Assembly (NCBI GenBank): GCA_049325515.1
Contig: JBMOLI010000011.1
Coordinates: 25,022-89,021 of the forward strand
DNA: 64,000 nucleotides
Origin: Actinomycetota bacterium
GTDB taxonomy: Bacteria; Actinomycetota; Acidimicrobiia; Acidimicrobiales; VFJN01
Direction: 5' to 3'
Numbering within the stretch: the first letter of the stretch is position 1; the number at the start of each line of letters is the position of its first letter. Positions 5,640 through 18,185 of this stretch are shown in pieces. Made by a program: the position numbers and the translations under genes. The notes below the pieces were generated by a model that had not been told where the DNA came from, did no database searches, and saw nothing but the letters and a program-made list of their open reading frames with translations.

Positions 5640-5704
5640 CCAACCAACGTCTGTGAACTCTCCCGGCCGCTATGCGGCCGTGGAGGTTCACAGACGTTGG
5701 TTGG
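5640..5704 (+). repeat. 65-nt palindromic intergenic repeat, copy 1
   Basis: Perfect 19-nt inverted arms CCAACCAACGTCTGTGAAC (5640-5658) and GTTCACAGACGTTGGTTGG (5686-5704) flank the 27-nt core tctcccggccgctatgcggccgtggag, which holds the inner hairpin cggccgc-tat-gcggccg. The strand sign denotes core orientation (arbitrary). Confidence 0.9.
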
Positions 5705-5745
5705 TAAGGGGGAAGGTTCGCGCTCGGAGACGGGTTGAGCACCCT

Positions 5746-6390
5746 GTGCGAGTGGAGATCTGGAGCGACGTCGCCTGCCCGTGGTGCTACGTGGGGCTTG
5801 CTCGGTTCGAGCGGGCGGTCGAAGAGACGGGCGCCGACGTCGAGATCGTGTTCCGTGCCTTCGAGCTCGATCCGTCGGTGCCGACCGGCACGGCCAGCCC
5901 GCCCTTGGTCGAGTACCTCGGTCGCAAGTACGGCGACCTGAGCCGAGTGCGCGCAGCGCACGCGCGCCTCACCGAAGCGGGTGCCTCAGCCGGCATCGAC
6001 TTCCGCTGGGAGGGCATGCGGCGTGCCAACACGTTCGATGCGCATCGGCTGCTCACGTGGGCCCTCGAGAACGAGGGCGCGGCGCGGCAGAGGGACCTCA
6101 AGCTGGCACTGCTGAGGGCCTACTTCTCCGACGGCCTCGACGTGGCCGACCACGAGGTGCTCGCCGACCTCTGCGGCTCGGTCGGCTTGCAGCGCGAGGC
6201 GGCCCTGGCAGTGCTCGATTCGGATCGCTACTCGGCGGAGGTCCGGGCCGAGCGGGCCGAAGCTCATAGCAACGGCATCGCAGCCGTCCCGACCTTCGTC
6301 GTGGAGGGCGAGTGGATGCTGCAAGGCGCGCATGACACCTCCGCGTGGGTGAAGGCCCTCACCCACATGCAGAAGAACCGACTTTCGTAA
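5746..6390 (+). CDS. DsbA family (FrnE-like) thiol:disulfide oxidoreductase
   Basis: VRVEIWSDVACPWCYVGLARFE carries the CPWC thioredoxin-fold active site at the N-terminus typical of DsbA/FrnE proteins. The ORF-track start 5653 reads through repeat copy 1, so I use GTG 5746 (or 5752). Confidence 0.8.
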   Translation: MRVEIWSDVACPWCYVGLARFERAVEETGADVEIVFRAFELDPSVPTGTASPPLVEYLGRKYGDLSRVRAAHARLTEAGASAGIDFRWEGMRRANTFDAHRLLTWALENEGAARQRDLKLALLRAYFSDGLDVADHEVLADLCGSVGLQREAALAVLDSDRYSAEVRAERAEAHSNGIAAVPTFVVEGEWMLQGAHDTSAWVKALTHMQKNRLS

Positions 6391-6396
6391 AGGGGT

Positions 6397-7806
6397 TCAG
6401 GCGCGGGAGCGGTAGGTGGCGCGGGAGCCCGCTGCGTCCTTGTTGAGGCGCTTGGAGAGATGCAGGCCCTCCAACACCAGCTCCACGGCTGACGCCACCG
6501 AGGCCGCCGACTCGTCGCCGCCGGTGAGTGCGGTGACGGCGTCGCGCAAGGCGGGCTGCTGTTCGAGCAGGGCGACGTACTCGGCTGAGGTGACGTCCTC
6601 TCCTGTGTGGACCACCGCTCCCTCGTCGAAGCTCGACACGATGGGCCGGAACTGCTCTGGGCTGAAGCGCTCCTTGAAGACGGTGAGCACGGCGGCCTTC
6701 ACGAGGTTCTCCGCGATCTGCGCATCACGCCCCTCCTCCAGCGCCTCGATCTCGATCTTGCCCATCATCGAGGCGGGAAGAGCATCGAGATCGCTCACGC
6801 GCGGCGACACCTCCCGCTCCCCGTGCCGCAGCGCACGGCGGGCGGCGTTGGCGACCATCACCTCGTGGTTGGTGATCGTGAAGCGCACCGACACGCCGGA
6901 GCGCTGGTTGATGTGGGGGCTCGACCTGGCCAGGTGCGAGAGCGTGGCCGCGATCTCGGTCATGTAGTCGGGTACCGAGACTCGGATGCCCTCCGCCGCC
7001 AGCGGCGACGCCTCCTGCAGCGCGATCGCCACCTCGGTGCCGACCTCGAGCGGGTAGTGGGTGCGGATCTGCGAGCCGAACCGGTCCTTCAGCGGAGTGA
7101 TGATGCGACCGCGGTTCGTGTAGTCCTCGGGGTTGGCCGATGCGAACAGGATCAGGTCGAGCGGCAGGTTGATCTTGTAGCCGCGCACCTGGATGTCGCG
7201 CTCCTCGAGCACGTTGAGGAGGCCGACCTGGATGCGCTCGGCAAGATCGGGCAGCTCGTTGATGGCGAAGATCCCGCGGTTGGTGCGCGGCACCAACCCG
7301 TAGTGAAGCGTCAGCTCGTCGGACAGGTAGCGGCCTTCCGCCACCTTGATCGGGTCGACCTCGCCGATCAGGTCTGCGATCGAGGTGTCTGGCGTGGCCA
7401 GCTTCTCGCCGTATCGGCGGCTCCTGTGCACCCACTCGATCGGCGCGTCGTCGCCGTGCTCGAGCACCAGCTCCCGCGCGTGGCGCGACACAGGCGCATA
7501 GGGATCGTCGTTGATCTCCGACCCTGCGACGATCGGCATCCACTCGTCCAGCAGGTCGACGAGGGCGCGGATCATCCGGGTCTTCGCCTGTCCTCGCTCG
7601 CCCAGGAAGATCACGTCGTGACCGGCGATGAGGGCGTTCTCGAGCTGCGGCAGAACCGTGTCCTCGTAGCCGAGCACGACCGGGAAGAGCTGCTCGCCGG
7701 ACTGGATCCTCGAGATGGCGTTGCGGCGGAGCTCTTCCTTCACGGGCACGGACGTCCAGCCCGAGTCGCGGAGCTGGCCGAGCGTGGCAGGGGCGGGGTG
7801 GTTCAT
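6397..7806 (-). CDS. AAA+ ATPase, magnesium-chelatase ChlI/sigma-54-interaction-domain-like
   Basis: Walker A-like FLGERGQAKTRMIRAL, Walker B-like RGIFAINELPDL, and the text LNVLEERDIQVRGY typical of ChlI/MoxR-type ATPases. Start taken at MNHPAPATLGQL (ATG 7806) to leave a divergent promoter gap before 7937. Confidence 0.8.
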   Translation of the reverse strand: MNHPAPATLGQLRDSGWTSVPVKEELRRNAISRIQSGEQLFPVVLGYEDTVLPQLENALIAGHDVIFLGERGQAKTRMIRALVDLLDEWMPIVAGSEINDDPYAPVSRHARELVLEHGDDAPIEWVHRSRRYGEKLATPDTSIADLIGEVDPIKVAEGRYLSDELTLHYGLVPRTNRGIFAINELPDLAERIQVGLLNVLEERDIQVRGYKINLPLDLILFASANPEDYTNRGRIITPLKDRFGSQIRTHYPLEVGTEVAIALQEASPLAAEGIRVSVPDYMTEIAATLSHLARSSPHINQRSGVSVRFTITNHEVMVANAARRALRHGEREVSPRVSDLDALPASMMGKIEIEALEEGRDAQIAENLVKAAVLTVFKERFSPEQFRPIVSSFDEGAVVHTGEDVTSAEYVALLEQQPALRDAVTALTGGDESAASVASAVELVLEGLHLSKRLNKDAAGSRATYRSRA

Positions 7807-14544: not shown

Positions 14545-15474
14545 TCAGCCCTGGGGCTGGTTCCACTCCGTCCAGCCGACGCCGCGCCGACCGTCTGCGG
14601 CCTCGAACCGGCACAGCGCCCGCGGAAAGCGCGAGACCCGGCGCGCCGTGCCGTCGTCGTCCACGAGGTTCACGGGCGAGAAGGCGACCGGTTCGATGGC
14701 CATGTCGAGCTCACCGCACACGAGGTGGCCCGAGGTGGGCAGGCCCTCGGCGTCGAGCTCCTCGTCGGCCGCGCAGACGTCGATCTGCCGGACGGCCTCG
14801 CCGGGGGACATCACGTAGCCGGGCGCGAACGCGTCCATGCCCGGCACTCGAACCCGCGTGGTGTGGAAGCGCGTGCCGTCCTCCAGCCAGCCGGCCGTCC
14901 ACACCCACCCGAACGTCCACCAGTCGCGCACGCCCCAGGAGTGATCGCGCTGGCCGATGCCGTCCAGCTCGATCCGCTCATCGCCGACGAGGATCTCGCC
15001 GTGGACGTTGCACGACACCTCGTAGCGGGTGGTGCCGATCCACGGATAGACGCCCTCACCATCGGTCTCCCACTCGAGGTCGAGGCCGAAGGGCACCCGA
15101 TCGCCTCGCAGGTCGCCGTACACCTCGGCTGGATCGTCGACCGACACGGCGAAGGCCTCGCATCCCAGGGTCATGTGCTCGTAGGGAGTCTCGACGGTGT
15201 GATCCGCCCACAGACCATCTGCGCGGATCTCCAGCGATGGCGCGGTCGGGAGCTTCACCTCGTGGTCGATGACTGTCACCAGCGGCCGGCCCTCGCCTAC
15301 CACGCAGGCCCAGTACCAGGCGGTGCCCAGGTTGGGATAGAGACCGAGGCGGACGTAGCCGCCCAAGGAGCCGTCGCGGGCGGCGAAGTCGAAGTACCAC
15401 GACTCCCCCCATAGCCGCTCCTCGCCAGGCGTGTGCGCCTGCTCGTCGTCACGCGTCAGGACGAGATCGCTCAC
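14545..15474 (-). CDS. hypothetical protein (possibly CrtC/AttH-like beta-barrel; family call tentative)
   Basis: High-GC3 309-codon frame containing GESWYFDF ... GQRDHSWGVRDWW. GTG 15474 overlaps the upstream stop (GTGA). I only vaguely associate these motifs with hydroxyneurosporene-synthase/AttH-like folds. Confidence 0.7.
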   Translation of the reverse strand: MSDLVLTRDDEQAHTPGEERLWGESWYFDFAARDGSLGGYVRLGLYPNLGTAWYWACVVGEGRPLVTVIDHEVKLPTAPSLEIRADGLWADHTVETPYEHMTLGCEAFAVSVDDPAEVYGDLRGDRVPFGLDLEWETDGEGVYPWIGTTRYEVSCNVHGEILVGDERIELDGIGQRDHSWGVRDWWTFGWVWTAGWLEDGTRFHTTRVRVPGMDAFAPGYVMSPGEAVRQIDVCAADEELDAEGLPTSGHLVCGELDMAIEPVAFSPVNLVDDDGTARRVSRFPRALCRFEAADGRRGVGWTEWNQPQG

Positions 15475-16610
15475 GCGGCACCCTCCGGGTAGAGGTCGTA
15501 GTAGGGCACGTCGTCTGGGATGCCGGCGTTCTCGCCCTGCATCGCAGACATCAGCTCGTACAGCGGTGCGGGCAGATCCCGGGGCACCGTCCAGTCCAGC
15601 TCGTCCGCCATCCCGGCGATCTTCGCGAACGGCCGCAGGAAGCTGAAGTACACGTAGGCCCCGGCGCGGATCTTCTCGTCACGCGTCATCGCAGCGATGT
15701 TGCGGTAGTGCTGAGCCTGGGCCGACCGGACAGCTGCGACGATGCCGTCGTACTCCTCGGCCGGCACGAGGCGCGTCTCGCCGGGCGGGAGGCCGTCAGT
15801 GGTGTAGAGGGCGAACCCGATGAGCCGGTCGAGGTAGTCCTCGGGAGTGTGGTTCGAGGTGCCGAAGTCCGTGAACGTGCTCTCGACGCCATCGAGCACC
15901 AGCGCGGCGGTGAGGTTGTGGTACGGCACCCCGGCCGCAACGGCCGACCAGGGGAAGTCACCGTGGGCTAGCCGATAGAAGTCGCGCACGAGCAGCGAAC
16001 ACCCTGGCCGGCCGGGCACCGGGTACGGACCCGTGTCGCCATACCCGGCCCGCGTGTCGAAGTAGAGCAGGAACAGGTGGTTGACGAGCGTGGCGTTGAA
16101 GCGCTTGACAGCGGAGCGGTGGTCGGCGTCCTCGATCGGCGCAACGCCGTCCAGCAGGGCCGCGATCGTGACGTCGTCGTAGATGAGCGAGGTGCCCGTG
16201 TCCCAGGCCTGACGTGTGCCGTCGCCTCGGTAGGCCAGAGCGGCTCGCTCCCAGAACCCGAGCACCTCAGCCGTGCGGGCGGGGTCGTCCGCCGCCGGAT
16301 CGACCATTGCCATGACCTTGCGGCCCAACAGGTAGAAGTTGGCGATCGACCACAGGTAGCAGGGGTCGACCTGACAGCCCGGTCTGCGAGCTCGCCGGCC
16401 GATCTCCTCGGCGGGCATGGCCGCATCGATCTCCCGCATCATCTCCGGATAGCGGAGGAACGACTCGGCGCAGGCGACCACGATGTAGGCGGTGACGGGG
16501 ATGAGGGCGCTCTCGAGCGAGGTGCGCTCCTGGGTCAGCGCCTTCGAGATGGGGTCGTGGTACGCGATCAGCCGGTTGGCCGTCGCCAGGGCTGACTCCT
16601 CCTCAGCCAC
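15471..16610 (-). CDS. hypothetical protein, no family recognised
   Basis: Long G/C-third-position frame. GTG 16610 (VAEEESALATANRLIAYHDPISK...) overlaps the stop of the upstream swivel-domain gene by 8 nt (GTGGCTGA), and the stop overlaps the next start. No nucleotide-binding or catalytic motif recognised by eye. Confidence 0.65.
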   Translation of the reverse strand: MAEEESALATANRLIAYHDPISKALTQERTSLESALIPVTAYIVVACAESFLRYPEMMREIDAAMPAEEIGRRARRPGCQVDPCYLWSIANFYLLGRKVMAMVDPAADDPARTAEVLGFWERAALAYRGDGTRQAWDTGTSLIYDDVTIAALLDGVAPIEDADHRSAVKRFNATLVNHLFLLYFDTRAGYGDTGPYPVPGRPGCSLLVRDFYRLAHGDFPWSAVAAGVPYHNLTAALVLDGVESTFTDFGTSNHTPEDYLDRLIGFALYTTDGLPPGETRLVPAEEYDGIVAAVRSAQAQHYRNIAAMTRDEKIRAGAYVYFSFLRPFAKIAGMADELDWTVPRDLPAPLYELMSAMQGENAGIPDDVPYYDLYPEGAA

Positions 16611-16947
16611 GGACGACGCCCTCGGAGCCACTGCAGTCGAGCTCGACCTCGGCTCCATCGTCGGGCTCGCCTTCCGTGAACGCGCACGACATCACGCAGG
16701 GCACCTGGAACTCGCGACTGACGATCCCGATGTGGCTGCGCACGGTGCCGCTGGTGCAGATGATCGCAGTGAGCTCGTGGTAGATCGGCGCCAGGAACGT
16801 GGCGCCCGCGTCGCGCACGAGAGCGACCACTCCGTCTGCTCCGCTGTCCATCAGCGTGAGGACGTCGTCGGGGCCCTCCATCGGCGTGAACCTCCCCCGC
16901 ACCGGTCCGTGGTCGAACACCTTGGCTCCCCGTCCGATCTCTCGCAT
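16603..16947 (-). CDS. stand-alone PEP-utilising-enzyme mobile ('swivel') phosphohistidine domain protein
   Basis: The 114-aa protein contains AIICTSGTVRSHIGIVSREFQVPCV. This is a divergent match to the PEP-utiliser phosphohistidine signature G-G-x-T-S-H-A-A-I-V-A-R-E-x-G-I-P. Confidence 0.75.
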   Translation of the reverse strand: MREIGRGAKVFDHGPVRGRFTPMEGPDDVLTLMDSGADGVVALVRDAGATFLAPIYHELTAIICTSGTVRSHIGIVSREFQVPCVMSCAFTEGEPDDGAEVELDCSGSEGVVRG

Positions 16948-16986
16948 GCGGGAGGAACCTAGTGGTCTAGCGCCGCGTGTGATGCC

Positions 16987-17520
16987 TCATCGTGCGCGGT
17001 CGCGGAAGGCCCGCACCTTGCTTCGGTTGCCGCAAACGTCCATCGAGCACCAGCGCTTGGAGTGGTTCCGCGAGGCGTCGTAGAAGGCCCACAGGCAGTC
17101 GCCCGCCGGGCAGATCTTGAGACGGTCCCAGGTGCCCGTGATCCGAGCAGTCGTGACCGCAGCCGCGATCTGAGCGAGGCCTCCCCGCACTCCTCCGTCG
17201 CAGGCTGCCAGGCCCTCTGGAGCGCTGACCGCACGAAGCGGTAGCTCGGCGAACACGACGTCGAGCTCGCGCAGAGCACTGGAGTCAGGCGGACCGTGGC
17301 CCTCTATGGCTGCGCGAAGCGCTGTTCGAAGGCGCCTCGCCAGCTGGAGGTCGCGCGCGCTAGGGCGTGCTCCCGGCTCCGCTAGGCCGGCCTCTGAGAG
17401 CCACTCGGCCAAGCCCTTCGCTGTCGTCAGCTGATCAGCCCCCGACTCGACTTCGATCGTGTTCACGAAGCTGCGAACGAGAGCGACGTCGGCTGGTGCT
17501 TCGAGATTGGCGGTCATCAT
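16987..17520 (-). CDS. CGNR zinc-finger (ABATE + zf-CGNR) putative regulator
   Basis: C-terminus LKICPAGDCLWAFYDASRNHSKRWCSMDVCGNRSKVRAFRDR contains the eponymous CGNR motif and four Cys. Confidence 0.85.
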   Translation of the reverse strand: MMTANLEAPADVALVRSFVNTIEVESGADQLTTAKGLAEWLSEAGLAEPGARPSARDLQLARRLRTALRAAIEGHGPPDSSALRELDVVFAELPLRAVSAPEGLAACDGGVRGGLAQIAAAVTTARITGTWDRLKICPAGDCLWAFYDASRNHSKRWCSMDVCGNRSKVRAFRDRAR

Positions 17521-17535
17521 GCGCTCCTCGTCACG

Positions 17536-17610
17536 AAACCACTGTACCGATTACGCCGGTGTTTGATACCCTAAACCTGCTAATCAAGTTTGATGGTTAC
17601 GAGCCGACAT
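17536..17610. promoter_or_regulatory. AT-richer divergent promoter/operator region
   Basis: A locally low-GC stretch (ccactgtaccgattacgccggtgtttgataccctaaacctgctaatcaagtttgatggttacgag) lies between the CGNR operon start (17520) and the + strand genes. GTTTGAT occurs twice (17561-17567 and 17588-17594). No confident -35/-10 pair assigned. Confidence 0.25.
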
Positions 17611-17623
17611 GAGAGGAGCGAAC

Positions 17624-17761
17624 ATGGAGAGCTCGATGTGGCTGGCGAGGGAGCGCATGGTGGAGGCACGTCAGCGAGCAGATCAAGAGCGCCTGGCCCG
17701 CGGCGCTCGGAGCAGGGACCATGGCCGGCCGCTGCTGCGTCGCATCCTGGGGCTCAGGTGA
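17624..17761 (+). CDS. possible small protein (45 aa), hypothetical
   Basis: ATG 17624 sits 5 nt after GAGGAG (17613-17618). Translation is MESSMWLARERMVEARQRADQERLARGARSRDHGRPLLRRILGLR with the stop at 17759-17761. It is below the ORF-track size cutoff. Only weak support. Confidence 0.25.
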   Translation: MESSMWLARERMVEARQRADQERLARGARSRDHGRPLLRRILGLR

Positions 17762-17807
17762 GCGGCCACGACCGCTGGTCAGACACGGCGCTTGTAGCGT
17801 CCGCCGT

Positions 17808-18185
17808 GTGGCGCTGTTCCTGACCCCTGAGTGGATCAAGGAGCTCGACGCCGCCGCGCGCCTGGTGCAGGTGCCCGGCGACATCGAGCTGACGGTGCAA
17901 CAGGTGGTGGAGGCAGGGGCCGGATCGACCGTCGAGTACGCGATCCGGATCGCCGGTGGAAGCATGTCAGTGCTCGGGGGGCGCGCCCAGGACGCCGACG
18001 TCACGATCGCCCAGGACAGGACGACCGCCGAGCAGATCGCGCGGGGCGAGCTGTCCGCGCAGACCGCGTTCATGGAGGGGCGTCTGAGGATCGGGGGTGA
18101 TCTGCGCAGCGCGGTGGATCGCGCGCTGGGGCTGGCCCGCCTCGAAGACGTGTTCGAGTCGGTGCGTCACAGCACCACCTGGTGA
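17808..18185 (+). CDS. SCP2 sterol-binding domain protein
   Basis: FLTPEWIKELDAA ... TAEQIARGELSAQTAFMEGRLRIGGDL is the typical SCP2 C-terminal pattern. GTG 17808 chosen; the ORF-track start is 17721. Confidence 0.7.
   Translation: MALFLTPEWIKELDAAARLVQVPGDIELTVQQVVEAGAGSTVEYAIRIAGGSMSVLGGRAQDADVTIAQDRTTAEQIARGELSAQTAFMEGRLRIGGDLRSAVDRALGLARLEDVFESVRHSTTW

Follow-up and report, generated by a model that had tools for sequence, protein, structure and literature searches.

A stand-alone phosphohistidine swivel protein linked to an unassigned protein family and a 25-phosphosteroid lyase homologue in Acidimicrobiia: a possible ATP-dependent dehydratase

The DNA analysed here, referred to as the window, is a 64,000 nt stretch of contig JBMOLI010000011.1 (positions 25,022 to 89,021 of the forward strand; GenBank assembly GCA_049325515.1) from an Actinomycetota bacterium of the order Acidimicrobiales. 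A sequence-only reading of the window had singled out four minus-strand genes between positions 14545 and 17520 as one unit, and both the open reading frame (ORF) list and the sequence bear out all four ORFs and their positions. However, the conserved unit is three genes, not four. These three, here called S, X and D, are the subject of this report, and with moderate confidence we favour the interpretation that their products form a two-step system that phosphorylates a substrate and then eliminates the phosphate, in effect an ATP-dependent dehydratase. The features concerned, in window coordinates, are as follows.

16603-16947, minus strand: S, 114 aa, a stand-alone phosphohistidine swivel domain (PF00391)
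15471-16610, minus strand: X, 379 aa with a GTG start, a family without assignment and the proposed acceptor-substrate module
16023-16058, minus strand: the X signature [D/E]185-x-R187-x6-G194-P195-Y196 (DTRAGYGDTGPY), defined from alignments A2, A3 and A5
14545-15474, minus strand: D, 309 aa, containing DUF7065 and DUF7064, a homologue of 25-phosphosteroid lyase (25-PSL)

The two overlaps that had been described are readable in the sequence. The stop of S and the start of X share 8 nt (GTGGCTGA, 16603-16610), and the stop of X and the start of D share GTGA (15471-15474). The 8 nt overlap is also found in a relative, L001 (S at 5664-6008 and X at 6001-7140). The longest ORF for X begins at an upstream ATG (16658); the 379 aa form, from the GTG, is backed by the starts of homologues and by the database copy P0001. 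The motifs that had been quoted, namely CTSGTVRSHIGIVSRE in S and both ESWYFDF and RDHSWG in D, are likewise present. All three proteins are small and soluble-looking.

The assignment of S to the phosphoenolpyruvate (PEP)-utiliser swivel domain holds, with a Pfam match to PF00391 (E 3e-9, 36.8 bits against a cut-off of 23.1), and NCBIfam returned only weak matches in the swivel region. His72 of S (codon CAC, 16732-16734) aligns with the catalytic His of the PEP synthase 2OLS and is invariant in all aligned S homologues, whether free or fused to X. The surrounding sequence follows the local motif (T/S)xG(T/S)xxSH, while the motif of classical dikinases is T/SxxGGxxxH (PMC12167813). Thus, S has the swivel domain and catalytic His in common with PEP synthase, pyruvate phosphate dikinase (PPDK) and enzyme I of the phosphotransferase system (PTS), but the GG of the classical motif reads GT in S, and the regulatory Thr found two residues before the His in PEP synthase and PPDK is replaced by Arg (V-R-S-H). 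These known enzymes also have a PEP/pyruvate TIM barrel, whereas the S-X-D system is without one. As had been supposed, the swivel domain is an orphan at this locus.

X belongs to no family in Pfam or NCBIfam, and neither database gave a PPDK_N or PEP-utilizers_C signal even at E <= 1. Searches of PDB sequences with phmmer and with a profile found no match. An AlphaFold2 model of X (pLDDT 93.6, pTM 0.92) is a helical bundle with one antiparallel beta-sheet, judged by the predicted secondary structure. Foldseek found no match for this model in the PDB (best E 0.7, TM <= 0.15), including the structures of PPDK, PEP synthase and rifampicin phosphotransferase (RPH), nor any in BFVD, and hhalign of X with an RPH-type dikinase gave no match. 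The Foldseek matches to lipid-binding or START-like proteins were of low probability (<= 0.08) and carry no weight here. The earlier view that the 379 aa protein is not an ordinary PPDK_N/ATP-grasp domain or PEP-binding TIM barrel is therefore upheld by the lack of Pfam, NCBIfam and PDB matches and by a confident model without a Foldseek match, and these results, with that of hhalign, indicate that X is not a rifampicin-binding-type domain either. In short, neither type of known dikinase acceptor domain, the PEP-utilizers_C TIM barrel or the rifampicin-binding-type domain, was detected in X by Pfam, NCBIfam, Foldseek or hhalign.

The X family is nonetheless a large one, with >1,600 matches in a clustered protein collection, all of them named 'hypothetical', and 459 representative clusters at 50 % identity. 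Members with a named source belong to Acidimicrobiia, Binatia and, among the Asgard archaea, Helarchaeota, Lokiarchaeota and Promethearchaeota. Across the family, G96-R97, R187, G194-P195(-Y196), P256 and G317 do not vary, and position 185 is always acidic. No P-loop, ATP-grasp or other nucleotide-binding signature was found in X.

Both Pfam domains of D exceed the gathering thresholds and are in N-to-C order, DUF7065 at residues 9-183 (46.9 bits, cut-off 27) and DUF7064 at residues 185-308 (88.1 bits, cut-off 24.7). A single-sequence phmmer search of PDB sequences with D returned nothing useful, and it was only with a profile of 14 D homologues that 25-PSL (9FZN, 9G2I and 9G4C) was seen, at E 1.7e-18. 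The AlphaFold2 model of D (pLDDT 87.5) also has 25-PSL as its top Foldseek match (E 1.1e-11, TMq 0.66, probability 1.00). Ranked below it are AttH-like proteins (2ICH), fungal pericyclases and kievitone hydratase (E 1e-7 to 4e-10). These proteins, like CrtC-like hydratases, have the same two-domain beta fold as D but no sequence-level match to it. The earlier guess of a CrtC/AttH-like barrel was thus right at the level of fold, but 25-PSL is the closer relative, and the idea that the 309 aa protein might be a partner module for phosphotransfer gives way to its identification, by profile and Foldseek, as a 25-PSL homologue.

Features common to D and 25-PSL, namely H14, a YYF strand, YPNLG, RDxSWGxR and a C-terminal GxGxxE, are invariant columns of the D alignment. 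In alignment A4, residues R176, D177, S179, W180, G181 and R183 do not vary, and their counterpart in 25-PSL is SRDRSWGVR. D177 is encoded by GAT at 14944-14946, and 9G4C differs from 9FZN by an Asp-to-Asn change at the equivalent position; this deposited variant suggests that the Asp is catalytic. The 25-phospho-steroids on which 25-PSL acts are made by an unrelated kinase, 25-HSK, and 25-PSL eliminates their phosphate to leave a delta-24 alkene (PMC7411048, PMC8449060, PMC11061730). As D is a 25-PSL homologue, it most likely consumes a phosphorylated product.

The gene order is conserved far outside this genome; a gene order confined to it would have counted against the sequence-only reading. 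The S-X-D trio was found in all 34 Acidimicrobiia loci with enough flanking sequence and also in distant lineages, which is more than chance would produce. The related genome records belong to Acidimicrobiia, those of Microthrixaceae among them, and in Microthrixaceae the trio sits among the housekeeping genes sdhAB, mdh and fpg. Median identities are 84 % for S and 79 % for both X and D, about as conserved as Mdh (84 %), and this level of conservation together with the sdh/mdh/fpg setting suggests a core function. No two of the genes stay together more consistently than X and D, whose pairing extends from Microthrixaceae to Asgard archaea. They are adjacent in 34/34 Acidimicrobiia loci and in 31 of 32 archaeal-like metagenome loci, the latter collected using alignment A5, which is closer than the highly divergent alignment A3. 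They are also adjacent, among unrelated flanking genes, in Helarchaeota (L041), Lokiarchaeota (L045), Binatia (L130) and four further loci (L040, L043, L048 and L129).

S is found within 1.5 kb of X in all 34 Acidimicrobiia loci and in 27 of the 32 archaeal-like loci with enough flanking sequence. In distant lineages there are natural single-chain S-X fusions (P0214, P0217, P0268 and P0269), with linkers of ~100 residues and 31-35 % identity to X. Three further fusions (P0122, P0138 and P0158), 57-62 % identical to the window protein, were set aside as possible frameshift or gene-calling artefacts of overlapping genes. The fusions and the 8 nt coupling of S and X argue for S acting stoichiometrically with X.

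An ATP-grasp partner is encoded in some of the relatives. Locus L044 includes a stand-alone gene for a 324 aa PPDK_N protein (E 1e-78) with S, divergent from X-D, and this layout, with PPDK_N and S on one strand and X and D on the other, recurs in 11 of the 25 archaeal-like loci whose flanks reach at least 3 kb. L047 has a PPDK_N gene overlapping the end of one that encodes a fusion of S, X and a further module, W (described below). The 370 aa product of this PPDK_N gene was considered as a candidate D, but hhalign rejected it and Pfam identified it as PPDK_N. In L042, L046 and L130, a protein with PPDK_N and swivel domains is encoded in the same operon. The earlier suggestion that the partner modules are novel therefore needs correcting: PPDK_N adjoins the swivel gene in the 11 archaeal-like loci, in L047 and in L130, and only X is novel. 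The broader idea of a split, non-canonical phosphotransfer enzyme with novel partner modules survives in part, in that X is novel and the swivel domain an orphan, and falls in part, as D is a lyase homologue and PPDK_N is found in relatives.

Paralogues of D with a weak match to the Rv3169 family were found next to other swivel kinases. One adjoins a 911 aa RPH/PRK06241-type dikinase by a start/stop overlap (L078:3496-7197, minus strand) and another adjoins a 575 aa HpeH-like protein with substrate-binding and swivel domains (L081:9401-12258, plus strand). Thus, D-family lyases repeatedly pair with swivel kinases that have differing substrate domains, as would be expected if X takes the functional place of such domains. 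The L078 and L081 pairs make up a second kind of swivel kinase plus lyase set, and are on the same contigs as an S/X/D set.

What the analysis shows directly is which domains the proteins contain, that S and X are fused in places, that the genes are linked, that D is homologous to 25-PSL and keeps its motif, and that X matches no solved structure. From the precedents HpeHI/PpsAB and 25-HSK/25-PSL we infer which way the phosphate flows, that X serves as acceptor and that elimination follows. The first step would be performed by a three-way split small-molecule dikinase of the PEP synthase, rifampicin phosphotransferase or HpeHI kind. An ATP-grasp (PPDK_N) protein would use ATP to load His72 of free S, and the resulting S~P would carry the phosphoryl group to X. 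X would replace the pyruvate-binding or rifampicin-binding-type acceptor domain and bind the substrate alcohol, with Arg97, Arg187, the acidic residue at 185 and the GPY loop as the candidate site of phosphoryl transfer. In the second step, D would eliminate phosphate from the phosphoester, yielding an alkene and inorganic phosphate. The substrate is probably a hydrophobic alcohol, perhaps tertiary or isoprenoid-like; this is a weaker suggestion, made because of the 25-PSL precedent and because a gene for an SCP2 protein neighbours the unit in 37 of 38 related loci. Some clusters of bacterial catabolic type (L043, L047, L129 and L130) have the module amid genes for a CoA transferase or ligase, enoyl-CoA hydratases and an SDR, in some cases with a biotin carboxylase set, and this points to acyl-CoA-linked substrates in those clusters.

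A number of observations weigh against this two-step system. The window contains no PPDK_N gene and none was found within 3.5 kb of the unit in 28 Acidimicrobiia loci (0/28), so an ATP-grasp phosphoryl donor in the Acidimicrobiia lineage is presumptive. It could be that the kinase is self-contained, with X of Acidimicrobiia binding the donor (ATP, PEP, polyphosphate or an acyl phosphate) too, or instead, and D still a lyase. This would fit with the 14 of 25 archaeal-like loci that are also without a neighbouring PPDK_N gene, with X being the sole universal partner of S, and with its invariant Arg and acidic residues. However, the most complete loci (those of the L044 type, L047 and L130) encode PPDK_N beside S or X, where it would be redundant if X bound a nucleotide, and X has neither a nucleotide-binding signature nor a structural match to a protein with one. 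We consider a self-contained kinase unlikely. Further points on the same side as the missing donor are that X has no recognisable kinase motif, that its role as the substrate-binding, phosphate-receiving module comes from analogy rather than direct observation, and that the locus was found only in DNA metagenome runs and in no RNA-seq run.

Other difficulties concern the lyase step. D shares only ~14 % pairwise identity with 25-PSL and its chemistry could differ, the fold also houses hydratases and pericyclases, and the match of D to the NCBIfam model Rv3169 (NF053593) covers only the N-terminal half and scores 36.7 bits against a cut-off of 150, which indicates that D is a relative of this subfamily rather than a member. 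In addition, some Asgard and other loci (L041, L045 and L048) have X-D with no S nearby. X and D might then be the two subunits of a lyase, hydratase or cyclase that works on a hydrophobic substrate with no phosphorylated intermediate, and S a regulatory or accessory phosphocarrier. That the fold of D is common to cofactor-free enzymes (AttH-like proteins, kievitone hydratase and pericyclases) would be in keeping with this, but the S-X fusions and 8 nt translational coupling are not, nor is the finding that D paralogues adjoin complete RPH-type dikinases. Moreover, 25-PSL is the best match to D in both structure and sequence, and D keeps 25-PSL residues that include the Asp mutated in 9G4C. 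We give little credence to a lyase that bypasses phosphorylation. The high conservation and the housekeeping neighbours (sdhAB, mdh and fpg) might instead have indicated an ordinary split enzyme of central metabolism, resembling PEP synthase or PPDK, with X a diverged ATP-grasp domain or TIM barrel. This is effectively refuted by X itself, which gives no PPDK_N or PEP-utilizers_C signal at E <= 1 in Pfam or NCBIfam, is confidently modelled as a helical bundle with one antiparallel sheet that has no ATP-grasp or TIM-barrel Foldseek match, and gives an empty hhalign result with an RPH-type dikinase.

The closest precedent for the phosphorylate-then-eliminate logic is the 25-HSK and 25-PSL pair of Sterolibacterium denitrificans, which achieves ATP-dependent dehydration of a tertiary steroid alcohol via a phosphoester (PMC7411048, PMC8449060). 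D is homologous to 25-PSL and the proposed logic is alike, in that an unreactive alcohol would be phosphorylated and the phosphate eliminated. However, 25-HSK is a single 40-kDa kinase of the phosphotransferase family (APH-like) that is encoded apart from the lyase and uses ATP directly in a ternary complex (PMC8449060), whereas here the lyase is translationally coupled to the swivel protein S and to X, an unrelated protein. D is also 50 residues shorter than 25-PSL, and the hosts differ, Microthrixaceae for S-X-D and a denitrifying steroid degrader for 25-PSL.

For the kinase step, the closest precedents are HpeHI, CreHI and PpsAB (phenylphosphate synthase), in which the ATP-grasp protein is free and pyrophosphorylates the swivel His of the component that binds the substrate (PMC12167813). 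Relatives of this locus encode just such a stand-alone PPDK_N protein (~324 aa) beside S, but HpeH, CreH and PpsA have their swivel fused to a rifampicin-binding-type domain, whereas S is a separate 114 aa protein and X has no detectable similarity to that domain. These systems also phosphorylate phenols with no lyase to follow, and, unlike them, the window has no ATP-grasp gene. RPH and the PRK06241-type 'PEP synthase-like' dikinases share the three-module logic of ATP-grasp, substrate domain and swivel His, but RPH is a single chain of ~870-910 aa with a substrate domain unrelated to X.

A further kinase-lyase pair may exist in Mycobacterium tuberculosis. The NCBIfam relative of D is named after Rv3169, and Rv3168, adjacent in number, belongs to the same kinase superfamily as 25-HSK, being a putative aminoglycoside-phosphotransferase-type kinase (PMC3691515).

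Swivel-histidine dikinases with in-trans components and dehydration by a kinase plus 25-PSL are both already published. The searchable literature contains nothing on the function of DUF7064 or DUF7065 and no link between phosphohistidine enzymes and ATP-dependent dehydration. Nor does it describe the X family or the X fold, a three-way split in which the swivel is free, a swivel kinase coupled to a PSL-type lyase, or the distribution across Acidimicrobiia, Binatia and Asgard archaea. To our knowledge, ATP-dependent dehydration via a phosphoester has been documented for one steroid pathway, besides the single-enzyme NAD(P)HX repair dehydratase. The locus suggests that such dehydration may be far more widespread and coupled to different kinase machinery.

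A more ambitious form of the proposal is that X is a new catalytic fold that takes phosphate from a free phosphohistidine carrier and places it on an unreactive alcohol (tertiary, or an isoprenoid or lipid) and, with D, forms a widespread, housekeeping-grade ATP-dependent dehydratase in Microthrixaceae, Binatia and Asgard archaea. We put this forward tentatively, as possible rather than as probable. If true, X would be a new acceptor domain for swivel-histidine dikinases with no solved structural relative, and the third type of acceptor module in the PEP-synthase superfamily. Phosphorylate-then-eliminate chemistry, which at present is known from anaerobic cholesterol degradation alone, would gain a second and independent kinase solution, and stand-alone swivel proteins now labelled 'PEP-utilising enzyme' or 'hypothetical protein' would gain a function. 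Microthrixaceae is the family of Candidatus Microthrix parvicella, a lipid-storing filament responsible for sludge bulking. Because conservation in this family is at the level of Mdh and the X-D pair extends to Asgard archaea, the place of S-X-D may be in core lipid or isoprenoid metabolism and not in some exotic catabolic pathway.

The remaining features of the locus lie upstream of S.

16987-17520, minus strand: CGNR gene, 177 aa, a zf-CGNR/ABATE putative regulator, accessory
17521-17720, no strand: CGNR-SCP2 divergent intergenic region, of lower GC, the presumed promoter region
17721-18185, plus strand: SCP2 gene, for a sterol-carrier-like lipid-binding protein (Pfam SCP2, E 8e-10)

The CGNR gene is on the same strand as S and 39 nt upstream of it. 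Its product has a C-terminal zf-CGNR domain (E 6e-20, 71.1 bits) and an N-terminal ABATE domain (E 1e-13, 52.5 bits), both above the Pfam cut-offs. It had been counted as part of the unit, but just 9 of 38 related loci have a detectable CGNR gene, which in 2-3 of those is reduced to a short remnant, and it is absent from L001, where SCP2 directly abuts S. The protein is plausibly a local, lineage-specific regulator. Remnants upstream of S, 72-87 % identical over 23-75 aa, were located at L006:5554-5622, L023:5510-5605 and L019:3008-3232 (partial), and suggest repeated loss of the regulator.

The divergent region had been described as AT-rich and as the site from which the CGNR protein might control the unit. 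The composition is indeed lower in GC (0.59 at 17400-17699, against ~0.68 around it), but no promoter- or operator-like element was found. As the CGNR-SCP2 intergenic region contained no sigma-70-like consensus, terminator or inverted repeat, no operator can be proposed. SCP2 is the divergent neighbour upstream of S in the 37 loci mentioned above. The SCP2 ORF as listed encodes 154 aa and the L001 orthologue 133 aa; the true start is probably downstream of 17721, which would make the intergenic region wider.

Variants of the module were seen in some of the relatives. Loci L042, L046 and L129 include a longer S (229-249 aa) and longer X variants (472-517 aa), together with genes for an acyl-CoA ligase, BCCP, biotin carboxylase and a PYC_OADA carboxyltransferase. 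L042 and L046 add a gene of the acetoacetate decarboxylase family and L129 adds one for an APH-type kinase. These clusters look like a phosphorylation-plus-carboxylation pathway.

The fifth recurrent module, W (~200 aa), either has its own gene in bacterial clusters that contain X or forms the C-terminal end of an X fusion. Its N-terminal part resembles a winged helix, and its C-terminal part is helical and ends in SYHxVWFELHEDLL. W had no significant Pfam match, and neither the window nor the Acidimicrobiia loci contain it. The examples found were as follows.

L042:10064-10666: W gene
L043:9572-10186: W gene
L130:6346-6957: W gene
L129:5955-6776: W gene
P0205, P0217, P0229 and P0269: W at the C-terminus

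Six Acidimicrobiia relatives (L003, L011, L015, L017, L023 and L025) have an insert of 0.4-0.9 kb that separates X from D. In L011 (7119-8080), a stop-free frame runs from 7119 into D and would encode an acidic N-terminus, one hydrophobic helix and a stretch rich in S, T and P. This insert is either an inserted gene for a membrane protein or an N-terminal extension of D. Finally, L048 encodes a 337 aa CBS-domain protein (5867-6880, minus strand) divergently upstream of the X-D pair. Phenylphosphate synthase likewise has a CBS protein as its gamma subunit, and the L048 protein may be an accessory subunit or a coincidence.

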